From NCBI GenBank assembly GCA_018882965.1, contig VEQY01000016.1, positions 308 to 64,307 of the forward strand: 64,000 bases of DNA. The letters are read 5' to 3'. The DNA comes from Mycobacterium sp. Its GTDB lineage: Bacteria > Actinomycetota > Actinomycetes > Mycobacteriales > Mycobacteriaceae. Position 1 is the first letter of the stretch; each line of letters opens with the position of its first letter. Positions 8,062-49,170 of this stretch are shown here, one piece after another. Position numbers and translations under genes: made by a program. The notes beneath the pieces are model-generated. The model ran no database searches. It was not told the DNA's origin and saw only the letters and a program-made list of their open reading frames with translations.

Positions 8062-8210
8062 CAGCGTCCCCCTGCCTTTCACCGAGTCCGCCGGTCGCGG
8101 AGCGTCCTCAGACTACCCGCGCCGACAACGGCGATAGCCGGTGTAGCGGCCCTGCGGCCACTATCGTGAGGGGGTCCGACCGGCTGAGTCGGACCAAGGA
8201 GGTGAGCAAG

Positions 8211-8321
8211 ATGCGTGTCCCCGAGACCAAGCGCACCGGCGGCTGTACCTGCCGCTGCGGCGCCTGCAAGAGCCAGGCACACTGCCGCAACATCGGCAGC
8301 GGCTGCCGGATCAAGCTCTAG
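8211..8321 (+). CDS. 36-aa Cys-rich basic small protein MRVPETKRTGGCTCRCGACKSQAHCRNIGSGCRIKL (absent from the ORF track)
   Basis: AAGGAGGTGA Shine-Dalgarno at 8196-8205, 5 nt before ATG; 32 of 35 sense codons after ATG end in G/C; TATCGT -10-like at 8162-8167; stop shares CTAG with the ppx2 stop. Confidence 0.8.
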   Translation: MRVPETKRTGGCTCRCGACKSQAHCRNIGSGCRIKL

Positions 8322-9262
8322 CGGATCGCGAGCGCGATCCCGTCGAGGATGTCGTGCTCGCTGACCACGAGCTCGCTGATCCCCGCCCGCTCCCCCAGCG
8401 CCGCGGCCAGTTCCTCGACGATGATCGCCCCGCCGGCGATGACGTCGACCCTGCCCTCGTGCATGGGGCCCAGCGCAGCACGCTGCGCGCGGGTCATGGC
8501 GATCAACTCCGCGCACACCGCGCGCAGGTCGGCGAACCCCACCCGAGACAGGTGAATCGCCGCGGGATCGTAGGTCGGCAGACCGTGGGCCAGCGCGGCG
8601 ATCGTGGTGAACGTTCCCGCCAGACCGACCCACGTGCGCGCCTGCTGCACCGGCACCACCCGAAGCGCCTCGGCCAGACGCTCCCGCACCACCTGCCGGG
8701 CATCGGCCACCTCCGCGGCCGCCGGCGGGTCGCTATGCAGGCAGCGCTCGGTCATCCGCACGCACCCGATGTCGGCGGAGAAACTGGCCTGCACGCCTCC
8801 GGCGGCCTCGCCCAGCACCACCTCGGTTGATCCGCCACCGAGGTCGACGACGACGAAAGGTCCTGCGGCGGAGTCCAACTCGCCGACCGCACCGTTGAAC
8901 GACAGCTCCGCCTCCTCGGCACCGGTGATCACCTCGGCGACCGCCCCCGGCACCACCTCACCGAGGACGGTGGCGGTCATCGCGAAGAAGTCGTCGCGGT
9001 TGGCCGCATCGCGGGTGGCCGACGTCGCCACCATCCGCACCCGGTCCACCCCGTAGCCGCGCAGCAATCCGGCATAGTCCACCAGCGCGGCGCGGGTGCG
9101 CTGCAGCGCGCCGGCACTGAAGCTGCCGGTGGCGTCCACGCCCTCGCCGAGGCGCACGATGCGCATCTCGCGGTGCAGATCGCTCAGCGTCGCGCCGTGG
9201 CGCTCGGCGACGAGCAACCGGATCGAGTTGGTGCCGCAGTCGATGGCCGCGACCCGGGTCAT
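8318..9262 (-). CDS. ppx2: Ppx/GppA family exopolyphosphatase (Rv1026 homolog)
   Basis: MTRVAAIDCGTNSIRLL, ATSATRDA, VDLGGGSTE, EHDILDG; last gene of the eno operon. Confidence 0.95.
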   Translation of the reverse strand: MTRVAAIDCGTNSIRLLVAERHGATLSDLHREMRIVRLGEGVDATGSFSAGALQRTRAALVDYAGLLRGYGVDRVRMVATSATRDAANRDDFFAMTATVLGEVVPGAVAEVITGAEEAELSFNGAVGELDSAAGPFVVVDLGGGSTEVVLGEAAGGVQASFSADIGCVRMTERCLHSDPPAAAEVADARQVVRERLAEALRVVPVQQARTWVGLAGTFTTIAALAHGLPTYDPAAIHLSRVGFADLRAVCAELIAMTRAQRAALGPMHEGRVDVIAGGAIIVEELAAALGERAGISELVVSEHDILDGIALAIR

Positions 9263-9750
9263 GTCCACTGCCCCGCAGCGAGGATCCCGGCCATCGCGGG
9301 GTCGGCGGCGACCCGGGCCAGCGCCTCGTCGCCGAGCGGGTTGACCCCCCGGCCCTTGGCCAGCGCGTGGGCCATGAGCACGTGCAGGCACTTCACCCGC
9401 TCGGGCATGCCGCCGGCCGAAGTGGTGGTGCCCAGGGGTGCGATCGCATCACGCTCGGCCAGGTAGGACTCGTGGGCGCGGCGGTAGGCGGCGGCGAGAT
9501 CGGGATCGGCGCGCAGCCGGGCGTTCATCGCCTCCATCGCCCCCTCGGATTCGAGCCTGCTGGCCGCGGCGGTCAGCGCGGGATGGGTCAGGTAGTACAG
9601 CGTCGGAAACGGAGTGCCGTCGGGCAGCCGCGGTGCGGTGGTGACCACGGCGGGCTCCCCGTTGGGGCAGCGGTAGGCGATCGCCAGCACCCCGCGCGGT
9701 ACCCGCCCCAACTGCCGTGCCACCACGTCGAGGTCGGCCGGGTCAACCAC
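9259..9750 (-). CDS. DUF501 family protein (Rv1025 homolog)
   Basis: PRLPDGTPFPTLYYLTHP and GGMPERVKCLH motifs; synteny. Confidence 0.92.
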   Translation of the reverse strand: MVDPADLDVVARQLGRVPRGVLAIAYRCPNGEPAVVTTAPRLPDGTPFPTLYYLTHPALTAAASRLESEGAMEAMNARLRADPDLAAAYRRAHESYLAERDAIAPLGTTTSAGGMPERVKCLHVLMAHALAKGRGVNPLGDEALARVAADPAMAGILAAGQWT

Positions 9751-10375
9751 CGGGCGGCGGCGGGGCCGGCGGCAGCGGCGGGGCCGGCGGGGGTTCGGCC
9801 GGCGGCCCGTGCGGGGTGTCGGCGATGGTGTGCCACAGCGCGGTGTACCAGGGGTCACCGCTGCGCGCGACGCCGCCCTGCGGCCCGCCGTCGACCGCCG
9901 CCGCCGACGACGGCGGCAGCTGCACCTGATAGGGAATGTCGCCGGGTTTGACGAAGCCCAGCCGCTCGCGGGCCTGCGCGGCGATGTAGACCGGGTCGGC
10001 GAGTTTGGCCTTCTGGCCCTCCAGGTCGGCGATCTGCTCGCGCAGCGCAGCCTCGCTGGCGGCCAGCTGGCGCATCTCGGTGCGCTGGGCGAAGTAGGTG
10101 CGCACCGGCCCGGCGATGGTCAGGGTCAGCACACACACCACCGCGGCGAGAATGGCCGCGCGTCGGGCGGTGAACCCCAGCCGCTCCTCGCTCTGCTGGG
10201 CGGCCGACGCGGAGATGGCGCGACGGATCGGTTCGGTGATGCCGCGCCGGACCGACTCGGCCCGCGCCCGCAGGCCCCGGCCGCCGGGCTCCTTGGCGCC
10301 CGCCCGCGCCGGCCGCGACCGGCGTGAGGTGGCTGCCGGCCGGGAGGCCGGCGTGCGCCGCTTGCCGTCTGCCAC
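9743..10375 (-). CDS. ftsB: Septum formation initiator FtsB/DivIC (Rv1024 homolog)
   Basis: Basic N-terminus, single TM helix, coiled coil, AQARERLGFVKPGD; follows eno. Confidence 0.9.
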   Translation of the reverse strand: MADGKRRTPASRPAATSRRSRPARAGAKEPGGRGLRARAESVRRGITEPIRRAISASAAQQSEERLGFTARRAAILAAVVCVLTLTIAGPVRTYFAQRTEMRQLAASEAALREQIADLEGQKAKLADPVYIAAQARERLGFVKPGDIPYQVQLPPSSAAAVDGGPQGGVARSGDPWYTALWHTIADTPHGPPAEPPPAPPLPPAPPPPGG

Positions 10376-39171: not shown

Positions 39172-39864
39172 ATGACGAACGCGATGAAGCCCGGGTCGGT
39201 CGCGGCCGCCATCGGGGTGTGCGCGGTGACGCTGGCCCTGGCGTTGACCGGATGCAGCAGCGCCACCAAGACCGCGACCGAGTCGGCCCCGCCCGCGACG
39301 ACCAGCCCGAGCCTGGTGGTGCCCGACCGGCCGACGGGCCCCAACATGACCATCGCCGACTACGTCGACGAGAACAAGATCGCCGAGACCCCGGTCAAGC
39401 AGGGCGATGCGGACTCCCCGAAGTTCGACTTCCCGATGCCCCCGGACTGGAGCGCGGCCGGCCCGCGCAAACCGGAGTGGGCCTATGGCGCCATCGTCTA
39501 CGACAAGGCCGAGAACAAGGCCGACCCGCCGTTCATGACCGCGATCGTCTCCAAGCTCACCGGCAACGTCGATCCGGCCAAGCTGCTCGAGTACGCGCCG
39601 GGTCTGCTGCAGAATCTGCCCGGCTACGAGCAGGACGGCGAGATTCAGAAGAGCACGCTCAGCGGGTTCGAGGCCATCCAGTTCCAGGCGTCCTACCTCG
39701 CCGGTGAGACCCGCCGCTACATCGCCCAGAAGACGGTCGTGATCCCGGCCAACGGCGGTGGCTTCTTCGTGCTGCAACTCAACGCCGACGCCCCGCTCGG
39801 ACAGGATCAGGTGATCATCGACGCGGCGAAGGTGATCAACGAGAAGACCGTCATCACCGTCTAG
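39172..39864 (+). CDS. LpqN/LpqT family lipoprotein
   Basis: AAGGAG RBS; lipobox LTGC; TIADY, SKLTGNVDPAKLLEYAPG. Confidence 0.88.
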   Translation: MTNAMKPGSVAAAIGVCAVTLALALTGCSSATKTATESAPPATTSPSLVVPDRPTGPNMTIADYVDENKIAETPVKQGDADSPKFDFPMPPDWSAAGPRKPEWAYGAIVYDKAENKADPPFMTAIVSKLTGNVDPAKLLEYAPGLLQNLPGYEQDGEIQKSTLSGFEAIQFQASYLAGETRRYIAQKTVVIPANGGGFFVLQLNADAPLGQDQVIIDAAKVINEKTVITV

Positions 39865-40850
39865 CAGACCGCGCGCATCACCTGGCGGGTCATGCACCGG
39901 ATGCGATCGGCCATCTCGGCGTCGATGCGCTCCGGTTCGCCGACGTCGAACACCGTCGTCACCACACCGGGCTCGTCGTGCTCCCACTCGCCGTCGAACC
40001 GGTCGAGGATCGCGCGCATGGGGGCGTTGTCGGCCAGCAGGCGGGCGGTGAACCGGCGCACGCCACCGACCTGGGCGGCCACGATCAGCGCGTCCATGAG
40101 GAAGCTTCCGATCCCCCGGCCCTGGTAGTCGTCGGCGACGATGAAGGCCACCTCGGCCACCGCCGGGTCCTCGTCGCTGCGGACGTACCGCGCGTCGGCG
40201 ACCACCGGCCCGTTCTCGCCGGCGGCGAGCACCCACACGAAGTGATCGACGTAGTCGACGTGGAAGAGGTAGTCCATCAGTGCGGCCGTGGGCGCGCGGG
40301 TGGACATGAACCGCCGGTAGAGCGTCTCCTGGGAGAAGTCCACCGCCGGGTGGGTCGAGCGGGCGCTGTCCCCGGGCAGCACCGGGCGCAGCAGCAGCAC
40401 GGTGTCCTCGGGAAAGTCGACCGTGATCGGGGTGATGAAGGCGGCCAGGCGCTGGCGGGCGGTGCGGACCAGTCGCTCGCCGACCCCGGGCAGGTCGGCC
40501 ATCGCGGCGAAGGCGGCCGCGTCGCCGGAATACCCCGACAGCGCGTCGGTGGCGGTGACGGTGGCCGAGCGGGGCTTGTCGCGCAGCAGCGCGATCTCCC
40601 CGACGATGGCGCCCGCGCCGACCACCTCGGTCACCGGCGGCCCGTCCTCGCCGACGTGGCGGACCTCCGCGGCCCCGGATCGGATCAGGATGAACGATTC
40701 CGCGCGCTCACCCTCGCGCATCAACACCTGCCCCGCCTCCGCGGAGAGCGCGTGCAGTCTTTCGGCCAGCGGGGCCAGCTGCCCGGCGGGAAGGTCTTCG
40801 AAGATCTCCATCGCGGCCAGGCCGGCCGCCGACACCTCTGAACCCGTCAC
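39861..40850 (-). CDS. pat: cAMP-regulated protein lysine acetyltransferase (cNMP-binding + GNAT; Rv0998 homolog)
   Basis: GEIALLRDKPRSATV and EVAFIVADDYQGRGIGS; GTGA overlap with the upstream oxidoreductase. Confidence 0.93.
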   Translation of the reverse strand: MTGSEVSAAGLAAMEIFEDLPAGQLAPLAERLHALSAEAGQVLMREGERAESFILIRSGAAEVRHVGEDGPPVTEVVGAGAIVGEIALLRDKPRSATVTATDALSGYSGDAAAFAAMADLPGVGERLVRTARQRLAAFITPITVDFPEDTVLLLRPVLPGDSARSTHPAVDFSQETLYRRFMSTRAPTAALMDYLFHVDYVDHFVWVLAAGENGPVVADARYVRSDEDPAVAEVAFIVADDYQGRGIGSFLMDALIVAAQVGGVRRFTARLLADNAPMRAILDRFDGEWEHDEPGVVTTVFDVGEPERIDAEMADRIRCMTRQVMRAVC

Positions 40851-41884
40851 GACGCCAGCAGGTTGACGATGCCGCGGAACGCGCCGGGCAGCGCGCTGGC
40901 GGCCGGCACGATCATCGAGCGCGCGGGGGCGAAACCGCTGGCGTGCAGCAGTCCCGCGGTCAGCGCGCGGTAGCGCCGCGACATCCGCCGCCACTGCCGG
41001 TCGTAGTCGCCCGGATCGCCGGCGAGCACGGAATCCACCACCAGCTCGGCGGCGCCGAACGCGATGCCCAGACCCTCGCCGGTCAAGGCGTCGACGTAGC
41101 CGGCGGCGTCGCCCACGAGCATCACCCGCCCGCAGACCCGCCCGGCCACCCGCTGACGCAGCGGCCCGGCCGCCCGGTCGCTGCCGTGCTCGCACCCGAC
41201 CAGCCGGTCCGCCAGTGCCGGGAAGGCGGCGAGTTGCTCCTCGAAACCGCCCTGGCGGGAGGTCAGGATCGCCACCCCCACACAGTCGTCGGCGACCGGG
41301 GTCACGTAGGCCTCACCGACCTCGGACTCACGCGCCCAGTACACCTCCACCCGGTCGTTCCACGGCGCGATTCGATAGTGCCGCCGGATGCCCCAGCGCC
41401 GGCGACCGGTTGCGGCCCGGTCCAGTCCCAGAGCACGTCGGATCGGGGAGTGCAGGCCGTCGGCGGCGGCAAGGTAGCGTCCCCGAAGCTCACCGCAGCG
41501 CACCGCGGAAGCGTCCTGGCTGACCTCGCCGACATCGGCGCGGACGATGCGGGCTCCGGCGTCGAGCGCGGCGGCGTGCAGCGCCTCGTGCAGGACGGTG
41601 CGCCGCACGCCCATCCCCCACCCGCTGCGGAAGTCGGCGTCGACCCGCCGCGTCTGGTCCAAGTAGCTGATCCCACGAAACGGCTTGCCCTGCAGCGGAA
41701 TACCGAGCTCGGTCAGCTGAGCCACGGTGTGCGGCATCAAGCCCTCGCCGCAGGCCTTGTCGATCGGGCCGCGCCTACGGTCCACCACGGTGACGTCCAG
41801 GCCCGCGCGGGCGGCATGCACCGCGGTCACCAGACCGGCCGGGCCCGCACCGGCGACGATCAGGTCGATCATGGCGCCGCTCAT
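40847..41884 (-). CDS. NAD(P)/FAD-dependent oxidoreductase (SrsC-like)
   Basis: GAGPAG, DKACGEGLMP, LAAADG, LVGDAAGYVDALTGEG. Confidence 0.9.
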   Translation of the reverse strand: MSGAMIDLIVAGAGPAGLVTAVHAARAGLDVTVVDRRRGPIDKACGEGLMPHTVAQLTELGIPLQGKPFRGISYLDQTRRVDADFRSGWGMGVRRTVLHEALHAAALDAGARIVRADVGEVSQDASAVRCGELRGRYLAAADGLHSPIRRALGLDRAATGRRRWGIRRHYRIAPWNDRVEVYWARESEVGEAYVTPVADDCVGVAILTSRQGGFEEQLAAFPALADRLVGCEHGSDRAAGPLRQRVAGRVCGRVMLVGDAAGYVDALTGEGLGIAFGAAELVVDSVLAGDPGDYDRQWRRMSRRYRALTAGLLHASGFAPARSMIVPAASALPGAFRGIVNLLAS

Positions 41885-42390
41885 GCGAGCGCCTTCAGTG
41901 CGGTGTTCTCGGTGCGGATCCGGGTCCGCAGCAGGACCGCGTTGAGCACGGTGAACACCAGCGCGGTGAGCCACGCCGAATGCACCAGCGGCAGCGCGAT
42001 GCCCTCCGCGACGACCGCGACGTAGTTGGGGTGCGCGAAGAACCGGTAGGGGCCGTCGTCGACGCGTGACGCCCCGGGGACCACCACCACGCGGGTGTTC
42101 CACTGCCGGCCCAGGGTGGCCACACACCACCATCGCAGCGCCTGGGCGGCGGCCACGACCGCCAGCATCGACCAGCCCAGCACCGGCAGGAACGGGCGGT
42201 GGAAGACGATCACCTCGAGCAGGCAGGCGGCCAGCAGCGCGGTGTGCAACACGACCATCGCCGGATAGTGTCCGGCGCCGAACTCGACACCGCCGCGCGC
42301 CCGGCTCCAGGCCAGATTGCGCCGGGACACCACGAGTTCGGCGACCCGCTCGGCGGCGATCGCCGCCAACAGCAGCGCATACCAGACCAT
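41881..42390 (-). CDS. Isoprenylcysteine carboxyl methyltransferase-family protein (SrsB-like)
   Basis: EFGAGHYPAMV, LGRQWNTRV, GPYRFFAHPNY. Confidence 0.92.
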   Translation of the reverse strand: MVWYALLLAAIAAERVAELVVSRRNLAWSRARGGVEFGAGHYPAMVVLHTALLAACLLEVIVFHRPFLPVLGWSMLAVVAAAQALRWWCVATLGRQWNTRVVVVPGASRVDDGPYRFFAHPNYVAVVAEGIALPLVHSAWLTALVFTVLNAVLLRTRIRTENTALKALA

Positions 42391-42403
42391 CAGCGAAAAC
42401 CGT

Positions 42404-43474
42404 TCAGCGCCAGCGCAGCAGGAGCAGCTCGGAGCAGAATCCGGGCCCCATCGCCATCATCACCGCGTTGCTGCCGGCGGGCGGGCCTTTAGCGATCGTG
42501 TCGCGCAGGATGTGCAGCACCGACGAGGAGGACATGTTGCCGACGTCGGCCAGCGAGCGCCAGGTGAGCTCCAGGGCGTCGGCAGGCAGATCCAGGCTCT
42601 CCTCGATGGCCTCGATCACCTTCGGCCCGCCCGGGTGGCTGACCCACACGTCGACGTCGCCGATGCCCATGCCGTGCGCGTCGAGCAGCCCGGTGACGTC
42701 GTCGGGCAGGTAGCGACGCACCACGTCGGGCACATCGGGCGAGAGCACCAGCCGCAGCCCCGACGCGTCGACGTCCCAGCCCATGGTGCGCTGGGAATCC
42801 GGGTAGAGGTGGCTGCGGGTGTCGATCACCTCGGGTCCGGCGGCGCCGATCCGCTCGGCGCGACGCTCGCCGGTGGCGACCACCGCGGCCGCACCATCAC
42901 CGAACAGCGCGCTGCCGACCAGGCCGGCGACTTCGGGGCGCAGCGCGGGGAAGGTCAGCGAGCACAGTTCCACCGACACCAGCGCCGCGACCTCGTCGGG
43001 CGCCCCGCGCAGGTAGTCGTGCAGCCGGGCCACCCCGGCCGCGCCGGCCACGCAGCCCAGTCCGAACATCGGCACCCGGCGCACATCGGGCCGAAGACCC
43101 AGTCGCAGGGCGATACGGGCGTCGATCGAGGGCACCGCGATACCGGTCACCGTCGTCGACATGATGACGTCGACGTCGGTGGGCGCCAGTCCGGCCTCCT
43201 CGAGGGCGGCGGACAGCGCCTGACAGCCCAGATCGACGGCGTGTTCGATGTAGAGCTCGTTGGCCTCGCCGAAGTCGGTCAGCGACGGATAGCGCTCCAT
43301 CGGCAGCACCAGATGGCGGTAGTTGACCTTCGCCGAGCGGTGCAGGCTGCGCAGGATGTCCGCGCACCCGGCGAACACCGCGTCGGCGGCGAACGCCTCG
43401 GTGATCTCGGCCTGGGGGTAGCGGTACGGCGGGAGTGCGCCCTGCACACCCGCGATGACGCTGATCGGTGCCAC
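42404..43474 (-). CDS. Type III polyketide synthase (SrsA-like, alkylresorcinol/alkylpyrone type)
   Basis: Catalytic Cys (FGLGCVAG), His (SHPGGPKV), Asn (VGNMSS); LFGDGAAA; MGPGF. Confidence 0.95.
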
Positions 43475-45709
43475 CTATCCAGTATGCCGTGCCGGCCCGG
43501 ATTCGCTTATTCCCAGCAAATTGTGCAGCTTGACCAGCGGCTTGGGCGCCCACCAGTTCCATCTGCCCATCACCTGCATGAATGCCGGCACCAGCACGAG
43601 GCGCACCAGGGTGGCGTCCATGAGCACGGCCAACGTCAGTCCCACGCCGAACATGCGCATCACCGCTACCTGCGCCGCGATCAGCCCGGCGAAGGTGATC
43701 GTCATGATCAGCGCCGCGGCGGTGATGACCCGCCCGGTGCGGGCCAGGCCCAGAGCCACACTCTCCTCGTGGTCGCCGTCGGTCTGCGGCGAGTCCAGCC
43801 AGAACTCGCGGATCCGCGCGACCAGGAACACTTCGTAGTCCATCGACAGCCCGAAGGCGATGCAGAACAGCAGCACCGGCATGTTGGACACCAGCGTCCC
43901 GGTGGGTGTGGTGCCCAGCGCTCCGAGGTGGCCCTCCTGGAAGATCCACACCATCGATCCGAACGCCGCGCTCAGCGACAGCAGGTTGAGGATGAGGGCT
44001 TTGACCGGCAGCACCACGCTGCCGGTGAGCAGGAACAGCAGCACCAGCATGATGACGGCGATCAGCCCGAGCGCAAGCGGCAGCCGGGACAGGATCGCAT
44101 CGACGCTGTCGCGGTTGGTCTGGGCCAGACCGGCGAACTGCACCGCCCGCCCGCCCGGCGGCTCGACCGCATGCAGCCGGTCGAGCAGGGTCTCCGATGC
44201 CGGGGAGAACAGCGGCAGGGTGTTGCCGACGGTGATCAGCGTGGAGCCGGCCTGCACGCCGGTGGCGGCCACCGGAGCGCCGACGACGACCCCGTTGACG
44301 AAGGTGCCGGCCGGAGTGGACACCGAGGTCACGTCGGGGACGGTCGACAGCGCCGCGCCGTAGCGGCCGACCTCGGCGGGGTCCAGTCCGACCGAGTCGG
44401 GGATGACGATCTGCACCTCCGAGTCGCTGTCGATGGCGAAGTCGGCTCGCAGCAGGTCCCCGACCTGATGCGCCGACGCCGAGGCGGGCAGCACCCGGTC
44501 GTCGGGGAAGCCGGGGCGCACGCCCAGAAACGGCAACCCGAGCACGATCAGCACCGCTACCGTCGTCACACCGATCGGTATGGCGCGCTTCATCACGAAC
44601 TCTGTCGAGCGGTACCAGAATTGCCGGTACACCGGCAGCGGGGCAGGATCGGGCCGGCCGAACAGGCGGCGCACCGCGCGGCGAACGTCCCACGAGTCGA
44701 GCCGATCACCGATCAGGATGATCGCCGAGGGCGTCACCAGAATCGCCGCCGCGGCGGCGAAGGCGACAGTGGCCACCCCGGCGTAGGCGAAGGACCGCAG
44801 GAAGCTCATCGGGAACACCACCATCGCGGCCATGGACAACGCGACGGTGACCGCGGAGAACAGCACGGTGCGCCCGGCGGTGACCATCATGGTGGTGACC
44901 GCCTGCGCCCGGGATCTGCCCTCGGCGAGCTCATCGCGAAAGCGGCTGACCATCAGCAGGGTGTAGTCGATGGCCAGCGCGAGTCCCATAGCGGTGGCCA
45001 GGTTCAGCGCGAAGATCGACACGTCGGTGAAGAAGGTCACCGTCCGCAGCACCGCCAGCGAGCCCAGGATCGCCATCACCCCGACCAGCACCGGCAGCGC
45101 CGCGGCGAACAGCCCGCCGAACACCCAGATCAGCACCACGAAACTGAGCGGCACCACGATCGCCTCCAGCAGCAGCAGGTCACGCTTGGACTGCTCGGTG
45201 ATCTGCAGGTTGACCATCGCCGTGCCGCCGGCACGCACCACGACTCCGTCGCGCTCCCCCACCAGCCGGTCGGTCAACTCCTTGGTGTAGGTCTGCTGCT
45301 CGCTTTCCGAACCGACGATGCCGGTCACGATGAGGCCCGACCGGCGGTCGGAGCTGATCAGCGCGTCGGCGGCCTGCGGCGGTGAGGTCCACGCGGATTG
45401 GATTCCGGCGACGTGTCCGGAGCGCGTGAGTTCGTCGACGATCTCACCGGCCACCGCGCGGGCCTGCGGGCCGTCGACGCTGTCGGGTGCGGTGACGACG
45501 AACACCAGCGGCACATCGCCCTGTCCGAACTTCTCGGTCAGGATCTTGGCCGCCCGCGACGACTCGGAGTGAGGGTCCTGAAAACCGCTGGGCGAGAGTT
45601 TCTCCGCCACCGGGATGCCGAACGCGCCGACGGCGATCGCGATGGCCACCGCCGTCAGGATCATCAGCCGCGGCGCGCCGATGGCGATGCGGGCGATCAG
45701 GGCGAGCAC
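43475..45709 (-). CDS. MmpL/RND lipid transporter, full-length MmpL13-like
   Basis: Two RND halves with GLALAIDY and FGLSMDYEVFL; N-terminus resembles MmpL13 as recalled; stop directly abuts the PKS start. Confidence 0.9.
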   Translation of the reverse strand: MLALIARIAIGAPRLMILTAVAIAIAVGAFGIPVAEKLSPSGFQDPHSESSRAAKILTEKFGQGDVPLVFVVTAPDSVDGPQARAVAGEIVDELTRSGHVAGIQSAWTSPPQAADALISSDRRSGLIVTGIVGSESEQQTYTKELTDRLVGERDGVVVRAGGTAMVNLQITEQSKRDLLLLEAIVVPLSFVVLIWVFGGLFAAALPVLVGVMAILGSLAVLRTVTFFTDVSIFALNLATAMGLALAIDYTLLMVSRFRDELAEGRSRAQAVTTMMVTAGRTVLFSAVTVALSMAAMVVFPMSFLRSFAYAGVATVAFAAAAAILVTPSAIILIGDRLDSWDVRRAVRRLFGRPDPAPLPVYRQFWYRSTEFVMKRAIPIGVTTVAVLIVLGLPFLGVRPGFPDDRVLPASASAHQVGDLLRADFAIDSDSEVQIVIPDSVGLDPAEVGRYGAALSTVPDVTSVSTPAGTFVNGVVVGAPVAATGVQAGSTLITVGNTLPLFSPASETLLDRLHAVEPPGGRAVQFAGLAQTNRDSVDAILSRLPLALGLIAVIMLVLLFLLTGSVVLPVKALILNLLSLSAAFGSMVWIFQEGHLGALGTTPTGTLVSNMPVLLFCIAFGLSMDYEVFLVARIREFWLDSPQTDGDHEESVALGLARTGRVITAAALIMTITFAGLIAAQVAVMRMFGVGLTLAVLMDATLVRLVLVPAFMQVMGRWNWWAPKPLVKLHNLLGISESGPARHTG

Positions 45710-45733
45710 GTCCGACCTTCCTCGGTCTGTTCG

Positions 45734-47161
45734 TCAGGTGGACGCCTGCTCGGCGGCCACCTGTCCACTCAACCACGCCCCGTGCACCGTGGAGTGCGCG
45801 GTGGGGTGGCTGGCCTCGCCGGCCAGCCACAGCCGGTCGGCCACCGGTGCGCTCAGCGTGGCGCGGTCGTCATCACCCGAGCCGACCGCGGTGAAGGAGT
45901 ACGAACCGCGGCTGAACTCGTCGGACCACCAGTTCGACGCCTGCGCGGCGGTCGGAGTGGGCACGCGGCTGCCGTACACCCGTCGCAGCATCGCCACGGC
46001 ACGATCGGCCTGCTGGTCGACCGTCAGCGCCTCGACAGCCTCGGCGGCGGCGCCGCCGTTGAGTGCCATCAGTGCCGGCTTTCCGGTGAACCGCGCGAGG
46101 TTGTACCAGTTGGTGAACGGCGCGCCCGGGTCGGCGATCTGAATCTGGTCGACGTCATCGGCGAAGCCCTCGTCGAAACTCAAGACCAGCTTCTCGTAGC
46201 GGCCGAAGCCCAGCCGTTCGACGGCCCCCTGGTGGCCGGGCGGCAGCGCCGGGGTGAACCGGATCGCGCCCGCCTTGAGCACCCCGAGGGGCACCGTGAC
46301 GATCGCCGCGCGCGCCGTCCAGGTGTCGGTGCCCGCGCGGACCACCACCCGGTCGGGGTCATTCAGCGACACCTCGGTGACGGCGGTGGACAACCGGATC
46401 GGCATTCCCTTCGCGAGTGCGGCGGTGAGCTGGCCGTAGCCACCGGGAAAGACCAGCTGCGGTCCGGGATAGGAGTCCTCCTCGGCCAGCGCGGCCAGTG
46501 CCAGTTGCTGGGGGCTGGCACCGTAGTCGCCGGCGAACTCGATCAGCTCGGCGGAGATCCCCGGGCTCGCGCTGAGCGCACGGGCGGCCGGCGGCAGCGC
46601 GTCGATGCCTTCGCTCATCGAGACCCCGCCGGCACCGGGTTCCTCCGCGGCATCCTCGAGCAAACCCATCACCGTGCCGATTTCGGCCTCGAGCCGGCCG
46701 TCAGCGGCGGCGTCGATCGGTGTGCCCTGCGCCGAGTACCGCGCTTCCGTCCCGGATCCGTCGACGGATCCGACATCGAAAACCGTTGTGGTGATGCCTA
46801 ATTCACGGGACAGATCGAAGATCGGGTTGCCGTCGCGACCGTGAATCCACGACGCACCGAGATCCACCGGCAGATCCGGCCACGCATCCGAGGTCCAGAT
46901 GCGCCCGCCGATGCGGTCACGCGCCTCCAGTACCACGTAGCGCACGCCCGCGCGGCCCAGCACGCGGGCGGCCGCCAGCCCGGCGATCCCCGCGCCCACC
47001 ACGACCACGTCCACGTCACGCTCGCCGGTGTCGGCGGGCCGGGCAGTATCGGCGGTATCGGCGGTATCCGCGGTGTCCCGGCTGCAAACGCCGATCACCG
47101 CGGCCACACACACCGCCGTGGCACCCAACAGCAGACTGCGGCGGGTCAGATCGGGCTGCAT
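45734..47161 (-). CDS. Tat-exported flavin-dependent amine oxidase family protein
   Basis: Twin-arginine TRRSLL; VVVVGAGIAGL, LEARDRIGGRI, DLGASWIHG, LAGEA, STVHGAWLSG. Confidence 0.9.
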   Translation of the reverse strand: MQPDLTRRSLLLGATAVCVAAVIGVCSRDTADTADTADTARPADTGERDVDVVVVGAGIAGLAAARVLGRAGVRYVVLEARDRIGGRIWTSDAWPDLPVDLGASWIHGRDGNPIFDLSRELGITTTVFDVGSVDGSGTEARYSAQGTPIDAAADGRLEAEIGTVMGLLEDAAEEPGAGGVSMSEGIDALPPAARALSASPGISAELIEFAGDYGASPQQLALAALAEEDSYPGPQLVFPGGYGQLTAALAKGMPIRLSTAVTEVSLNDPDRVVVRAGTDTWTARAAIVTVPLGVLKAGAIRFTPALPPGHQGAVERLGFGRYEKLVLSFDEGFADDVDQIQIADPGAPFTNWYNLARFTGKPALMALNGGAAAEAVEALTVDQQADRAVAMLRRVYGSRVPTPTAAQASNWWSDEFSRGSYSFTAVGSGDDDRATLSAPVADRLWLAGEASHPTAHSTVHGAWLSGQVAAEQAST

Positions 47162-47174
47162 GCGTTATGACCCT

Positions 47175-47222
47175 AGACCGGGGTGACTTGAGACCGGGGT
47201 GACTTGAGACCGGGGTGACTTG
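47175..47222. repeat. Perfect 3 x 16-bp tandem repeat (AGACCGGGGTGACTTG)
   Basis: Units at 47175-190, 47191-206 and 47207-222, in a divergent intergenic region. Confidence 0.97.
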
Positions 47223-47257
47223 CACTGTCGGGGTCAGCTGTTAGCTTTCCGGCTCAC

Positions 47258-47554
47258 ATGCCGTCCCACGCCGACCTCGACCAGCTGCTCGCCGCCGCCG
47301 CCGACCTGGACGCGCACGCGGGAAACCTCCTCGCCGCGCACACCGCCGCCGACGCCGCCGCCGAGTGTGCGCTGGGCGGCTGGGCCGGGCGCTCGCGGGT
47401 GGCCATCACCGAGACTGCCGAGCGGTGGGCGGCGCTGACCACCGCCGTGGTGGCCCGCCTCGACGGCCACGCGCAGGGCCTGCGGACCAGCGCGCGCAGC
47501 TATGCGGCCGGCGACGAAGCCGGCGCGCAGGTCCTCGCGCAGATCCGCCGGTGA
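47258..47554 (+). CDS. WXG100 family (ESAT-6-like) type VII secretion protein
   Basis: 98 aa, helical, central WAG motif, C-terminal SARSYAAGDE. Confidence 0.88.
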   Translation: MPSHADLDQLLAAAADLDAHAGNLLAAHTAADAAAECALGGWAGRSRVAITETAERWAALTTAVVARLDGHAQGLRTSARSYAAGDEAGAQVLAQIRR

Positions 47555-49170
47555 CGCTGAGCCCCGCCGAACTCGATCGCTGGGATCCCGAGGCGCTGCA
47601 GGAGGTCGCCGAGGCCGCCCGGGCGCGCGCCGACTGTGCCGCGCAGCTGTCCGCGGCGCTGACCGGTTTGTCCGTCCTGACCGGCTGGACCGGCCCGGCC
47701 GCGCTGGCCGCCCGCACGGCCTTCGACCAGTCCCGCGCGCAGGTGGACGCCCACGCCGCCGAGACGCGGGCGGTGGCCGACGCCGCCGAGCGCGCCGCCG
47801 CCGATCTGCGCGCGATTAAGGCGCGGCTGCGCGAGGTCGAGGAACGCGCCGAGGCCGCCGGGATCCGCATTGATCCCGACACCGCACAGCTGTCCCCGGG
47901 ACCGGGATTCACCGGTGCCGTCCTCCTGCTCACCGAACTGGCCGATCAGCTGAGCGTGATCCTCGCCGACGCCGACGCGGTGGACGCTGAACTGGCCGCG
48001 GCCATCACCGCCGCCGGGGACCCGACCGACTCCGTTACCCGTGACGGCGTCCCGGTCGCCGAGCGCAGTGCGGCCAACATCGCGACGATGACAGCGGACC
48101 TGGACCGGGTGCGCCGTGCCGCAGCCATACACCGGGTCACCGCCTCGGAGGTCGCCGCCGATCCGGGCCGATTCGGCCTGTCCGCCGGCGAGGTCACCCG
48201 CTACCGCAATGCGGTACAGGTCCAGGAAGGCCTGATCTACAACCGCGCCCAGACCGGTGCGGAGACGCTGCTGGTCATCTATGACCCGGTGGCCTTCGGC
48301 GGGCAGGGCCGCGCGGCGATCGCGATCGGCAACCCCGACCGGGCCGCCCGCACCACGGTGATCGTGCCCGGCACCACCCACAGCGTCGCGACCGGGTGGC
48401 TGCGCTCCCCCGGTCCGGCCCTGCTGTACACCGAGACCCGCCGGGCCGACCCGAACCGGACGGGATCGGTGATCGCCTGGATGGGCTACGACGCCCCCGA
48501 CGGTCCGCTCGACGCTCGGATGGCCCAGACCGGGCTGGCCCGCAAGGGCGGGGCGCTGCTGGCCGCCGACCTCAACGCGCTCGCGGCGACCCACCCAGCA
48601 GGCGCCCGTGTGACGGTGGTCGGCCACTCTTACGGGTCGACGACGGTCGCCGACGCCGCCGCCGGCTACGCGATGCGCGCCGACGACGTCGTCCTGCTCG
48701 GCTCGCCGGGCACCGACCTGGCCCGCACGGCGGCGGATTTCCGGTTGCCCGCCGGCGGCCACGTCTATGTGGGTGCCGCCTCCACCGATCCGGTCACCAC
48801 GCTGGCGGGCATTCGCGGGGTCCTGCCCGGCACTGACGTGCCCACCGGGCAGCTGGGGCTGGGCGCCGATCCGGCGGCCGACGGGTTCGGGTCGACCCGC
48901 TTCAAGGCCGAAGCGCCGGGCTGGCGGGTGTGGAGCGATCACGGCCGCTATTTCGAGTCCGGCTCGGAGTCGCTGTTCAGCATGGCCGAGATCGCCGCCG
49001 GGCAGGGCGCGGAGTTGCAGCGCCTCGGCATGACCGCGCCGCACCGCGGTGGGCTGCTCGGCTCACTGGCCGCGCGACTGGGTCTACCGAACTGGAGTGA
49101 CCCTCTGTCCGACCCGGAGCTCTACCGCCCGGCCACCTCGGGGCATCAGCACCGCCCGGGCGGGCGCTGA
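47551..49170 (+). CDS. WXG100-like N-terminal domain fused to a DUF1023-type alpha/beta hydrolase; putative type VII effector
   Basis: GTGA coupling; LDRWDP...GWTGPAA N-terminus; GHSYG nucleophile, LLGSPG, DPV, DHGRY. Confidence 0.82.
   Translation: MTLSPAELDRWDPEALQEVAEAARARADCAAQLSAALTGLSVLTGWTGPAALAARTAFDQSRAQVDAHAAETRAVADAAERAAADLRAIKARLREVEERAEAAGIRIDPDTAQLSPGPGFTGAVLLLTELADQLSVILADADAVDAELAAAITAAGDPTDSVTRDGVPVAERSAANIATMTADLDRVRRAAAIHRVTASEVAADPGRFGLSAGEVTRYRNAVQVQEGLIYNRAQTGAETLLVIYDPVAFGGQGRAAIAIGNPDRAARTTVIVPGTTHSVATGWLRSPGPALLYTETRRADPNRTGSVIAWMGYDAPDGPLDARMAQTGLARKGGALLAADLNALAATHPAGARVTVVGHSYGSTTVADAAAGYAMRADDVVLLGSPGTDLARTAADFRLPAGGHVYVGAASTDPVTTLAGIRGVLPGTDVPTGQLGLGADPAADGFGSTRFKAEAPGWRVWSDHGRYFESGSESLFSMAEIAAGQGAELQRLGMTAPHRGGLLGSLAARLGLPNWSDPLSDPELYRPATSGHQHRPGGR

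Follow-up and report, generated by a model that had tools for sequence, protein, structure and literature searches.

The PkqABC enzymes of Mycobacterium smegmatis (MSMEG_0808-0810) produce methylated alkyl-benzoquinones that act as alternative electron carriers when oxygen is limited, and the SrsABC operon of Streptomyces encodes the corresponding three-enzyme system for phenolic lipids and methylated alkyl-benzoquinones (PMC9927152, PMC8730385). In M. tuberculosis, the ICMT-like membrane protein and the oxidoreductase encoded by Rv1139c-Rv1138c are co-regulated with a type III polyketide synthase (PKS) within the SigL regulon (PMC4105308). The locus analyzed here spans positions 39861-47161 of a 64,000-nucleotide stretch of Mycobacterium sp. 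DNA (contig VEQY01000016.1), the whole of which is referred to below as the window. It shares with PkqABC of M. smegmatis and SrsABC of S. griseus three enzymes in the same order, namely, a type III PKS, an ICMT-like methyltransferase, and a flavin adenine dinucleotide (FAD) oxidoreductase. However, both of these systems were described as three-gene operons lacking a transporter (PMC9927152, PMC8730385), whereas the window and many other mycobacteria carry an MmpL13-family gene in front of the PKS gene. The locus is a member of this already known pathway with a conserved MmpL13-family transporter added, and the main new outputs are the genus-wide link between MmpL13-family genes and PKS trios and the placement of the window's transporter as a paralog of MmpL13. 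We consider it likely that the locus is built around a conserved module of four genes (MmpL, PKS, ICMT, and oxidoreductase) in which the MmpL protein moves the lipid made by the three enzymes, that the amine oxidase gene preceding the module is an accessory, and that the adjacency of the acetyltransferase gene pat at its other end results from genome compaction. As taken from the list of open reading frames, the genes are, in order of transcription:

45734-47161, minus strand, amine oxidase gene, 475 amino acids
43475-45709, minus strand, MmpL gene, 744 amino acids
42404-43474, minus strand, type III PKS gene, 356 amino acids
41881-42390, minus strand, ICMT-family methyltransferase gene, 169 amino acids
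40847-41884, minus strand, FAD oxidoreductase gene, 345 amino acids
39861-40850, minus strand, pat gene, 329 amino acids

An earlier note, made from the letters of this DNA, had described six same-strand genes separated by short gaps and two overlaps, and the reading frames, gaps, and overlaps were all found as it gave them. From the oxidase gene to the ICMT gene the intergenic gaps are 24, 0, and 13 bp, the GTG start of the PKS gene directly abutting the MmpL stop codon. The oxidoreductase ATG then lies on the ICMT stop codon (ATGA, 41881-41884), and the oxidoreductase stop codon overlaps the pat start (GTGA, 40847-40850). The GC content at third codon positions is 0.86-0.92 in all six frames, as for real genes in this genome of ~70% GC, and the domains that the note had assigned to the six proteins all proved correct by Pfam and NCBIfam. 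The source genome, which belongs to Mycobacterium sensu lato, comprises 3.35 Mb in 113 contigs and is 95% complete. Its nearest named relatives are metagenome-assembled genomes (MAGs) of uncultured 'Mycobacterium sp.' or 'Mycobacteriaceae bacterium', one of them a chromosome of 3.26 Mb.

The three enzymes of the module are each encoded once in the genome. The PKS carries the Pfam Chal_sti_synt_N and Chal_sti_synt_C domains, is of the Pks10/Pks11/PkqA type, and aligned over its full length to M. tuberculosis Pks11 (PDB 4jao, E 2.7e-158, ~70% identical), with the catalytic Cys (GLGCVAG), His (SHPGGP), and Asn (GNMSSS) motifs retained. The methyltransferase is an integral membrane protein of the PkqB/SrsB/Rv1139c type (PF04140, ICMT, at 5.6e-28). 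The oxidoreductase is of the PkqC/SrsC/Rv1138c type; it matched PF01494 as well as the NCBIfam geranylgeranyl-reductase family (5.4e-33), and among solved proteins, flavin monooxygenases and halogenases are distantly related to it. With same-strand ICMT and FAD oxidoreductase genes directly 3' of a PKS gene bearing the catalytic triad, the PkqABC/SrsABC architecture recognized in the earlier note is borne out. By analogy with these two systems, the PKS would build an alkylresorcinol-type ring by condensing malonyl- or methylmalonyl-CoA with a long-chain acyl-CoA starter, and the methyltransferase and the flavoenzyme would then turn this ring, within the membrane, into a phenolic lipid or a methylated alkyl-(hydro)quinone. 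For a PKS that forms resorcinols, a Trp is expected at the ArsB-281 position of the active site (PMC9927152).

The transporter matched PF03176 (2.3e-77) in two halves and, at 744 amino acids, has no long C-terminal domain. Its translation includes two Asp-Tyr motifs (AIDYTLL and SMDYEVF), which we take to correspond to the proton-relay pairs of MmpL3. The nearest solved structure is that of MmpL3 (308 bits, versus ~95 bits for MmpL4/5), and the traits of cluster II transporters, which are MmpL3/11/13-like and lack a D2 docking domain, are present. A survey of named genomes centred on the MmpL gene gave 80 loci, which were mapped by tblastn searches with the proteins encoded in the window; loci are designated below by L numbers. 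Two contexts were found. In type A, the MmpL gene is followed by same-strand PKS, ICMT, and oxidoreductase genes, as in the window; this context accounts for 36 rows of the tree, the window's own copy counted, out of 82 MmpL13-family loci. In type B, the order is CoA-transferase III (mcr-like), SDR, MmpL, methyltransferase, and, on the opposite strand, Sir2. The type B context is presumably that of Rv1138c-Rv1139c ... Rv1141c-Rv1144, mmpL13a/b (Rv1145/46) ... Rv1151c in M. tuberculosis, where mmpL13 is split (mmpL13a/b) in strain H37Rv. MmpL13 itself corresponds to Rv1145/Rv1146 and is counted as a conserved core member of the MmpL family (PMC6463170), and Rv1151c is the Rv number of the sirtuin (PMC5999986).

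A second copy of the family is encoded in the same genome on contig C113 (L081, 5665-12849). It is 61% identical to the window's MmpL and lies in a complete mcr-SDR-NMO-MmpL-methyltransferase-Sir2 context. In a maximum-likelihood tree, every type B gene, including the C113 copy, fell into one clade (SH-aLRT 98), the window's gene stood outside it in a separate type A group, and a long branch set A and B together apart from the other MmpL3/11-like copies of the genome. Two complete genomes of the genus (4.4-4.5 Mb) contained just three matches each to the C113 protein at E <= 1e-30: one at 65-67% identity and, at 31-34%, an adjacent pair 6 kb apart, as in the MmpL11/MmpL3 arrangement. This pattern of a single close match plus an MmpL11/MmpL3-like pair identifies the family as MmpL13. 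The window's MmpL resembles MmpL13 in being MmpL3-like rather than MmpL4/5-like, ~750 amino acids long, and without a long C-terminal domain, and it is 61-66% identical to the genes found in the mcr-SDR-MmpL-methyltransferase-Sir2 context. It differs from MmpL13 in belonging to a sister group always followed by a PKS trio. Judged from sequence and neighborhood, the window's gene is an MmpL13-family member of the type A sister group and not the positional MmpL13 ortholog, a role for which it is ruled out by the C113 copy and by the tree. The label of MmpL13-like exporter given in the earlier note is accordingly right as to family, given the MmpL3-like score and the tree, and wrong if read as orthology, since the copy on C113 holds the positional context.

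The linkage of this family with PKS trios extends well beyond the window. Type A loci were found in environmental and rapid-growing species, among them Mycolicibacterium rhodesiae, M. sphagni, M. psychrotolerans, and M. agri, and in many MAGs. In slow growers such as M. gordonae, M. asiaticum, M. colombiense, M. intermedium, and M. simulans, the type B context includes an opposite-strand oxidoreductase-ICMT-PKS trio ~7 kb upstream of MmpL13 (20-24 loci), with enoyl-CoA hydratase and NAD-binding genes in between; the PKS was absent from a few type B loci. The Rv1139c-Rv1138c pair with pks10 of M. tuberculosis resembles the window's locus in tying an ICMT-like protein and an oxidoreductase to a type III PKS, but the slow-grower pair belongs to the divergent B-type trio, whose proteins are 50-68% identical to those of the window. 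In a third configuration, found in the rapid-grower loci L038, L040, L048, and L069 (~8200-9800), a B-type PKS-ICMT pair lies directly 5' of a type A MmpL gene. MmpL13-family genes are thus joined to PKS sets in three ways: co-linearly in type A, as a B trio with MmpL13 in slow growers, and as a B PKS-ICMT pair with a type A MmpL. In the four loci of the third kind, the transporter gene is flanked by two paralogous PKS sets. The PKS tree followed the same division, with an A clade (support 99) whose sister is the trio of two other Mycobacteriales families, and a B clade holding both the slow-grower trio and the PKS-ICMT pair of the four rapid growers.

Approaching the linkage from the PKS side gave a matching picture. 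Among 20 genomes of the genus sampled around the PKS, 14 contained a full trio and the other six a lone pks10/11-like gene, and in 13 of the 14 a type A MmpL gene was located directly upstream of the trio. In 7 of these 13, glgP lies ~2 kb 3' of the oxidoreductase gene and pat is not nearby, while in the window's clade glgP lies 5' of the MmpL gene. Since the internal order of the four genes is constant while their orientation to glgP varies, the retained unit is the stretch from MmpL to oxidoreductase. The four-gene content, the intact motifs, and the linkage across the genus are matters of observation. From the conserved linkage and the intact Asp-Tyr motifs we infer lipid export, in which a proton-driven MmpL would carry the product from the inner leaflet to the periplasmic face or the outer envelope. 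The idea, raised in the earlier note, that this locus could hint at a substrate class for MmpL13 gains from the survey, as the linkage with the trio is kept across the genus whether viewed from the transporter or from the PKS. Full-text searches combining MmpL with polyketide quinone or with type III polyketide synthase returned no paper on a link between MmpL and the trio.

The amine oxidase gene is distributed quite differently from the module. Its product matched PF01593 at 5.9e-67 over residues 59-472, and its best solved relatives are the amine-oxidase domains of LSD1, spermine oxidase, and polyamine oxidase. At the N-terminus, a TRRSLL twin-arginine motif is followed by a hydrophobic stretch ending in Cys and by a (TAD)n linker. 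The twin-arginine pair is retained in five orthologs, and those at L001, L004, L007, and L013 combine it with a canonical lipobox Cys (LGGC, LAAC, or LSGC); the corresponding region of the window's protein reads VIGVC, which is non-canonical at position -1. The twin-arginine translocation (Tat) signal reported in the earlier note is therefore well founded, standing as it does before a full-length PF01593 domain and being kept in orthologs, and the oxidase is probably a Tat-exported lipoprotein, judging by these N-terminal features. It resembles the Tat-exported flavin amine oxidases of the NicA2 type in joining a MAO-family fold to an N-terminal twin-arginine signal, and the NicA2 entries 5ttj and 7khn aligned to its residues 6-112, a stretch that starts close to the N-terminus and takes in the FAD-binding region. 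In contrast, overall it is closest to domains of the polyamine oxidase/LSD1 type, and its orthologs are lipoproteins.

The oxidase was found in at least three of 120 sampled genomes of the genus (13 candidates scored per genome). It occurred in six MmpL-centred loci, always 18-77 bp 5' of a type A MmpL gene, and was missing at that position in close relatives. We regard it as probably a lineage-restricted and dispensable accessory gene. The formation of quinones outside the cell by this enzyme is unlikely, given that its family acts on C-N bonds rather than on phenols and that its distribution is patchy. The extracytoplasmic oxidation of the product envisaged in the earlier note is a conjecture.

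At the other end of the module, Pat combines a cNMP-binding domain (PF00027) with a GNAT domain (PF00583) and scored 480 bits against the NCBIfam equivalog NF058543 (ActPatMycb56), the cut-off being 460. It is encoded once in the genome and is the ortholog of Rv0998/MSMEG_5458. In M. tuberculosis and M. smegmatis, Pat performs a cyclic AMP (cAMP)-activated acetylation of Acs and FadD enzymes (PMC8856561); in the hypoxia response, a further target is DosR, from which Rv1151c removes the acetyl mark (PMC5999986). The window's protein thus shares with Mt-Pat/KATmt (Rv0998) the two domains, the equivalog match, the single copy, and the arcA/pmt neighborhood, while differing in that its gene abuts or overlaps the last gene of a PKS module, which is the case only in this small-genome lineage. 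Two starts are available for pat, GTG 40850, with the 4-bp overlap, and the in-frame GTG 40835, which leaves an 11-bp gap. A third candidate, ATG 40811, lies past the point at which the conserved 'LAxMxxF' motif begins in all relatives, which makes it an unlikely start.

The junction itself was examined across relatives. In 10 small-genome relatives, an ATG 5-31 bp after the oxidoreductase stop codon opens a variable N-terminal extension preceding 'LAxMxxF', and the two genes overlap in the window (GTGA) and in L001 (by one base, TGATG). The stop/start overlap that the earlier note had pointed out is therefore real, and the junction stays tight throughout these 10 relatives. Co-transcription of pat with the oxidoreductase gene is likely from this spacing, and translational coupling is possible. 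In a wider clade that includes Mycolicibacterium sp. CH28, M. pinniadriaticum, M. sphagni, M. rhodesiae, and M. psychrotolerans, however, the two genes stand 1-2.7 kb apart, with variable DNA between them that holds an SDR gene in one case and an opposite-strand GH5 glycosidase gene in another, and in other A-type genomes pat is nowhere near the module. The order from pat to arcA and pmt is, we assume, that of Rv0998-Rv1002c in M. tuberculosis, which places pat at its ancestral site. The simplest history is one in which the module was set once beside the pat block and the intervening DNA was then lost in the reduced-genome lineage, so that pat, a core gene that had not moved, would have come to abut the module. 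The restriction of the tight junction to small-genome relatives fits such a compaction. The control of pat by the cluster, as proposed in the earlier note, is conjectural.

These distributions bear directly on whether all six genes form a single adaptive operon, in which the Tat-exported oxidase would modify the exported lipid outside the cytoplasm and pat would come under cluster control, so that the acetylation of acyl-CoA/AMP ligases, or of DosR, in response to cAMP would be tied to product synthesis. Such an operon would account for the single strand, the gaps of 24, 0, and 13 bp and the two overlaps, for the fixed position of the oxidase gene 18-77 bp 5' of MmpL wherever it is present, and for the presence of pat within 31 bp of the oxidoreductase gene in 11 lineages. 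It would also agree with the known acetylation of Acs/FadD (PMC8856561) and DosR (PMC5999986) by Pat, with the description of polyketide quinones (PkQ) as hypoxia-linked carriers (PMC9927152), and with the location of the positional MmpL13 paralog two genes from a Sir2 deacetylase. Nonetheless, of ~100 loci only three (the window, L001, and L005) had the full set, the module occurs with other flanks, and the oxidase belongs to a family of polyamine oxidase/LSD1-like enzymes that oxidize C-N bonds, not phenols. Moreover, pat sits at its ancestral site, unrelated variable genes part it from the module in the wider clade, and its adjacency reduces to one ancestral event followed by a deletion. 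We therefore consider a six-gene operon improbable; the unity of the six genes asserted in the earlier note gives way to a four-gene module flanked by a rare oxidase gene and, in one clade, by pat. In the window's genome, the acetylation writer Pat is encoded beside the type A module and the eraser Sir2 two genes from the type B MmpL13. This pairing was noticed post hoc, and each of the two adjacencies is a single inherited arrangement.

Several observations nevertheless weigh against the four-gene module and its proposed history. First, about 10 small-genome relatives have ~1.7 kb between MmpL and PKS, so the genes do not always form one transcript. This insert, which consists of an opposite-strand class-I O-methyltransferase gene (PF01596) and a gene for a protein of 257-300 amino acids with no Pfam match, was found at L002 (12253-13828), L010 (13060-13833), L003-5, L011-13, and L017-18; neither gene is present in the window. 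Second, this MmpL does not accompany the trio in the two loci examined outside the genus, which belong to two other Mycobacteriales families. Third, related genomes are not independent of one another, and the A-type linkage may amount to few evolutionary events. Fourth, the operon structure was inferred from gene spacing alone. Fifth, the pat junction is tight in 11 fairly divergent lineages despite insertions elsewhere, which could reflect selection for coupling. Finally, an exporter is not obviously needed by polyketide quinones if, as described, these carry electrons in the membrane.

In a rival reading, the MmpL gene is a mere conserved neighbor whose product carries another cargo, perhaps a mycolate-type lipid or some other lipid of the envelope like those moved by MmpL3 and MmpL11, and the trio acts alone. 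The PkqABC and SrsABC trios do work as three-gene operons as described, trios without MmpL exist in the two other families and also at L105, an opposite-strand gene intervenes between MmpL and PKS in some relatives, and in slow growers five unrelated metabolic genes part the B-type trio from MmpL13. Such an explanation would, however, have to account for three distinct configurations linking MmpL13-family genes to PKS trios, for a four-gene order that is constant while the orientation to glgP differs, and for the presence of MmpL at all but one of the 14 full trios sampled in the genus. We thus hold a cargo unrelated to the trio to be unlikely and favor the four-gene module with the transporter acting on the product of the three enzymes.

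A promoter or operator of the minus-strand series is expected in the 96-bp intergenic region between the divergent oxidase and WXG100 genes, which is the only obvious place for it. One feature was read directly in this region:

47175-47222, no strand, three perfect 16-bp direct repeats

A scan of positions 39500-47600 for sigma-70 promoters and intrinsic terminators gave no match on either strand, a result that is uninformative in a mycobacterium of 70% GC. A loose SigL-type pattern (GAAC N15-19 CGTG) gave 13 matches versus 16.7 expected, and the single SigL-like match near the cluster was rejected as it ends inside the MmpL start codon.

To our knowledge, MmpL13 is among the last mycobacterial MmpL transporters without a known substrate. 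With both paralog lineages tied to PKS/ICMT/flavoenzyme trios, PkQ-type phenolic or quinone lipids become a candidate substrate for it. Should polyketide quinones have a dedicated pump, a role in the envelope or its outer leaflet may add to their function as hypoxic electron carriers. Of lesser interest is the pat junction, an example of how a biosynthetic operon and the gene of a core regulator can become joined through genome reduction. A far broader proposal would make MmpL13-family pumps the dedicated translocators of type III PKS alkylresorcinol/alkylquinone lipids throughout the genus, including Rv1138c-Rv1139c/pks10, with Pat/Sir2 acetylation wired in. If this were true, the synthesis of the alternative quinone would be gated by cAMP and NAD+ status jointly with either the supply of starter acyl-CoA or the hypoxia response, but we give this proposal very little credence.

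Downstream of pat are a convergent LpqN-like lipoprotein gene and genes for TspO, a DUF5642 protein, arginine deiminase (ArcA), and a protein O-mannosyltransferase (PMT). The lipoprotein gene (39172-39864, plus strand) belongs to the LpqN family, its stop codon overlaps that of pat by 4 bp, and a gene of this family recurs close to the module in relatives. MmpL3 and MmpL11 are reported to interact with LpqN through their periplasmic domains. Upstream of the oxidase gene and divergent from it are genes for a WXG100 protein, a DUF1023-type hydrolase, GlgP, another hydrolase, and PPK2. The first two (47258-49170, plus strand) form a pair in which the WXG100 gene is coupled to that of the DUF1023/Abhydrolase_8 protein, and in relatives without the oxidase, a DUF1023/Abhydrolase_8 hydrolase gene lies directly 5' of MmpL. 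At L001, the closest relative (MmpL ~91% identical), a DDE transposase gene is located just 3' of pat (L001 15899-17245). The oxidase, WXG100, and hydrolase proteins of L001 are 57-74% identical to those of the window, versus 90-92% for the proteins of the module.

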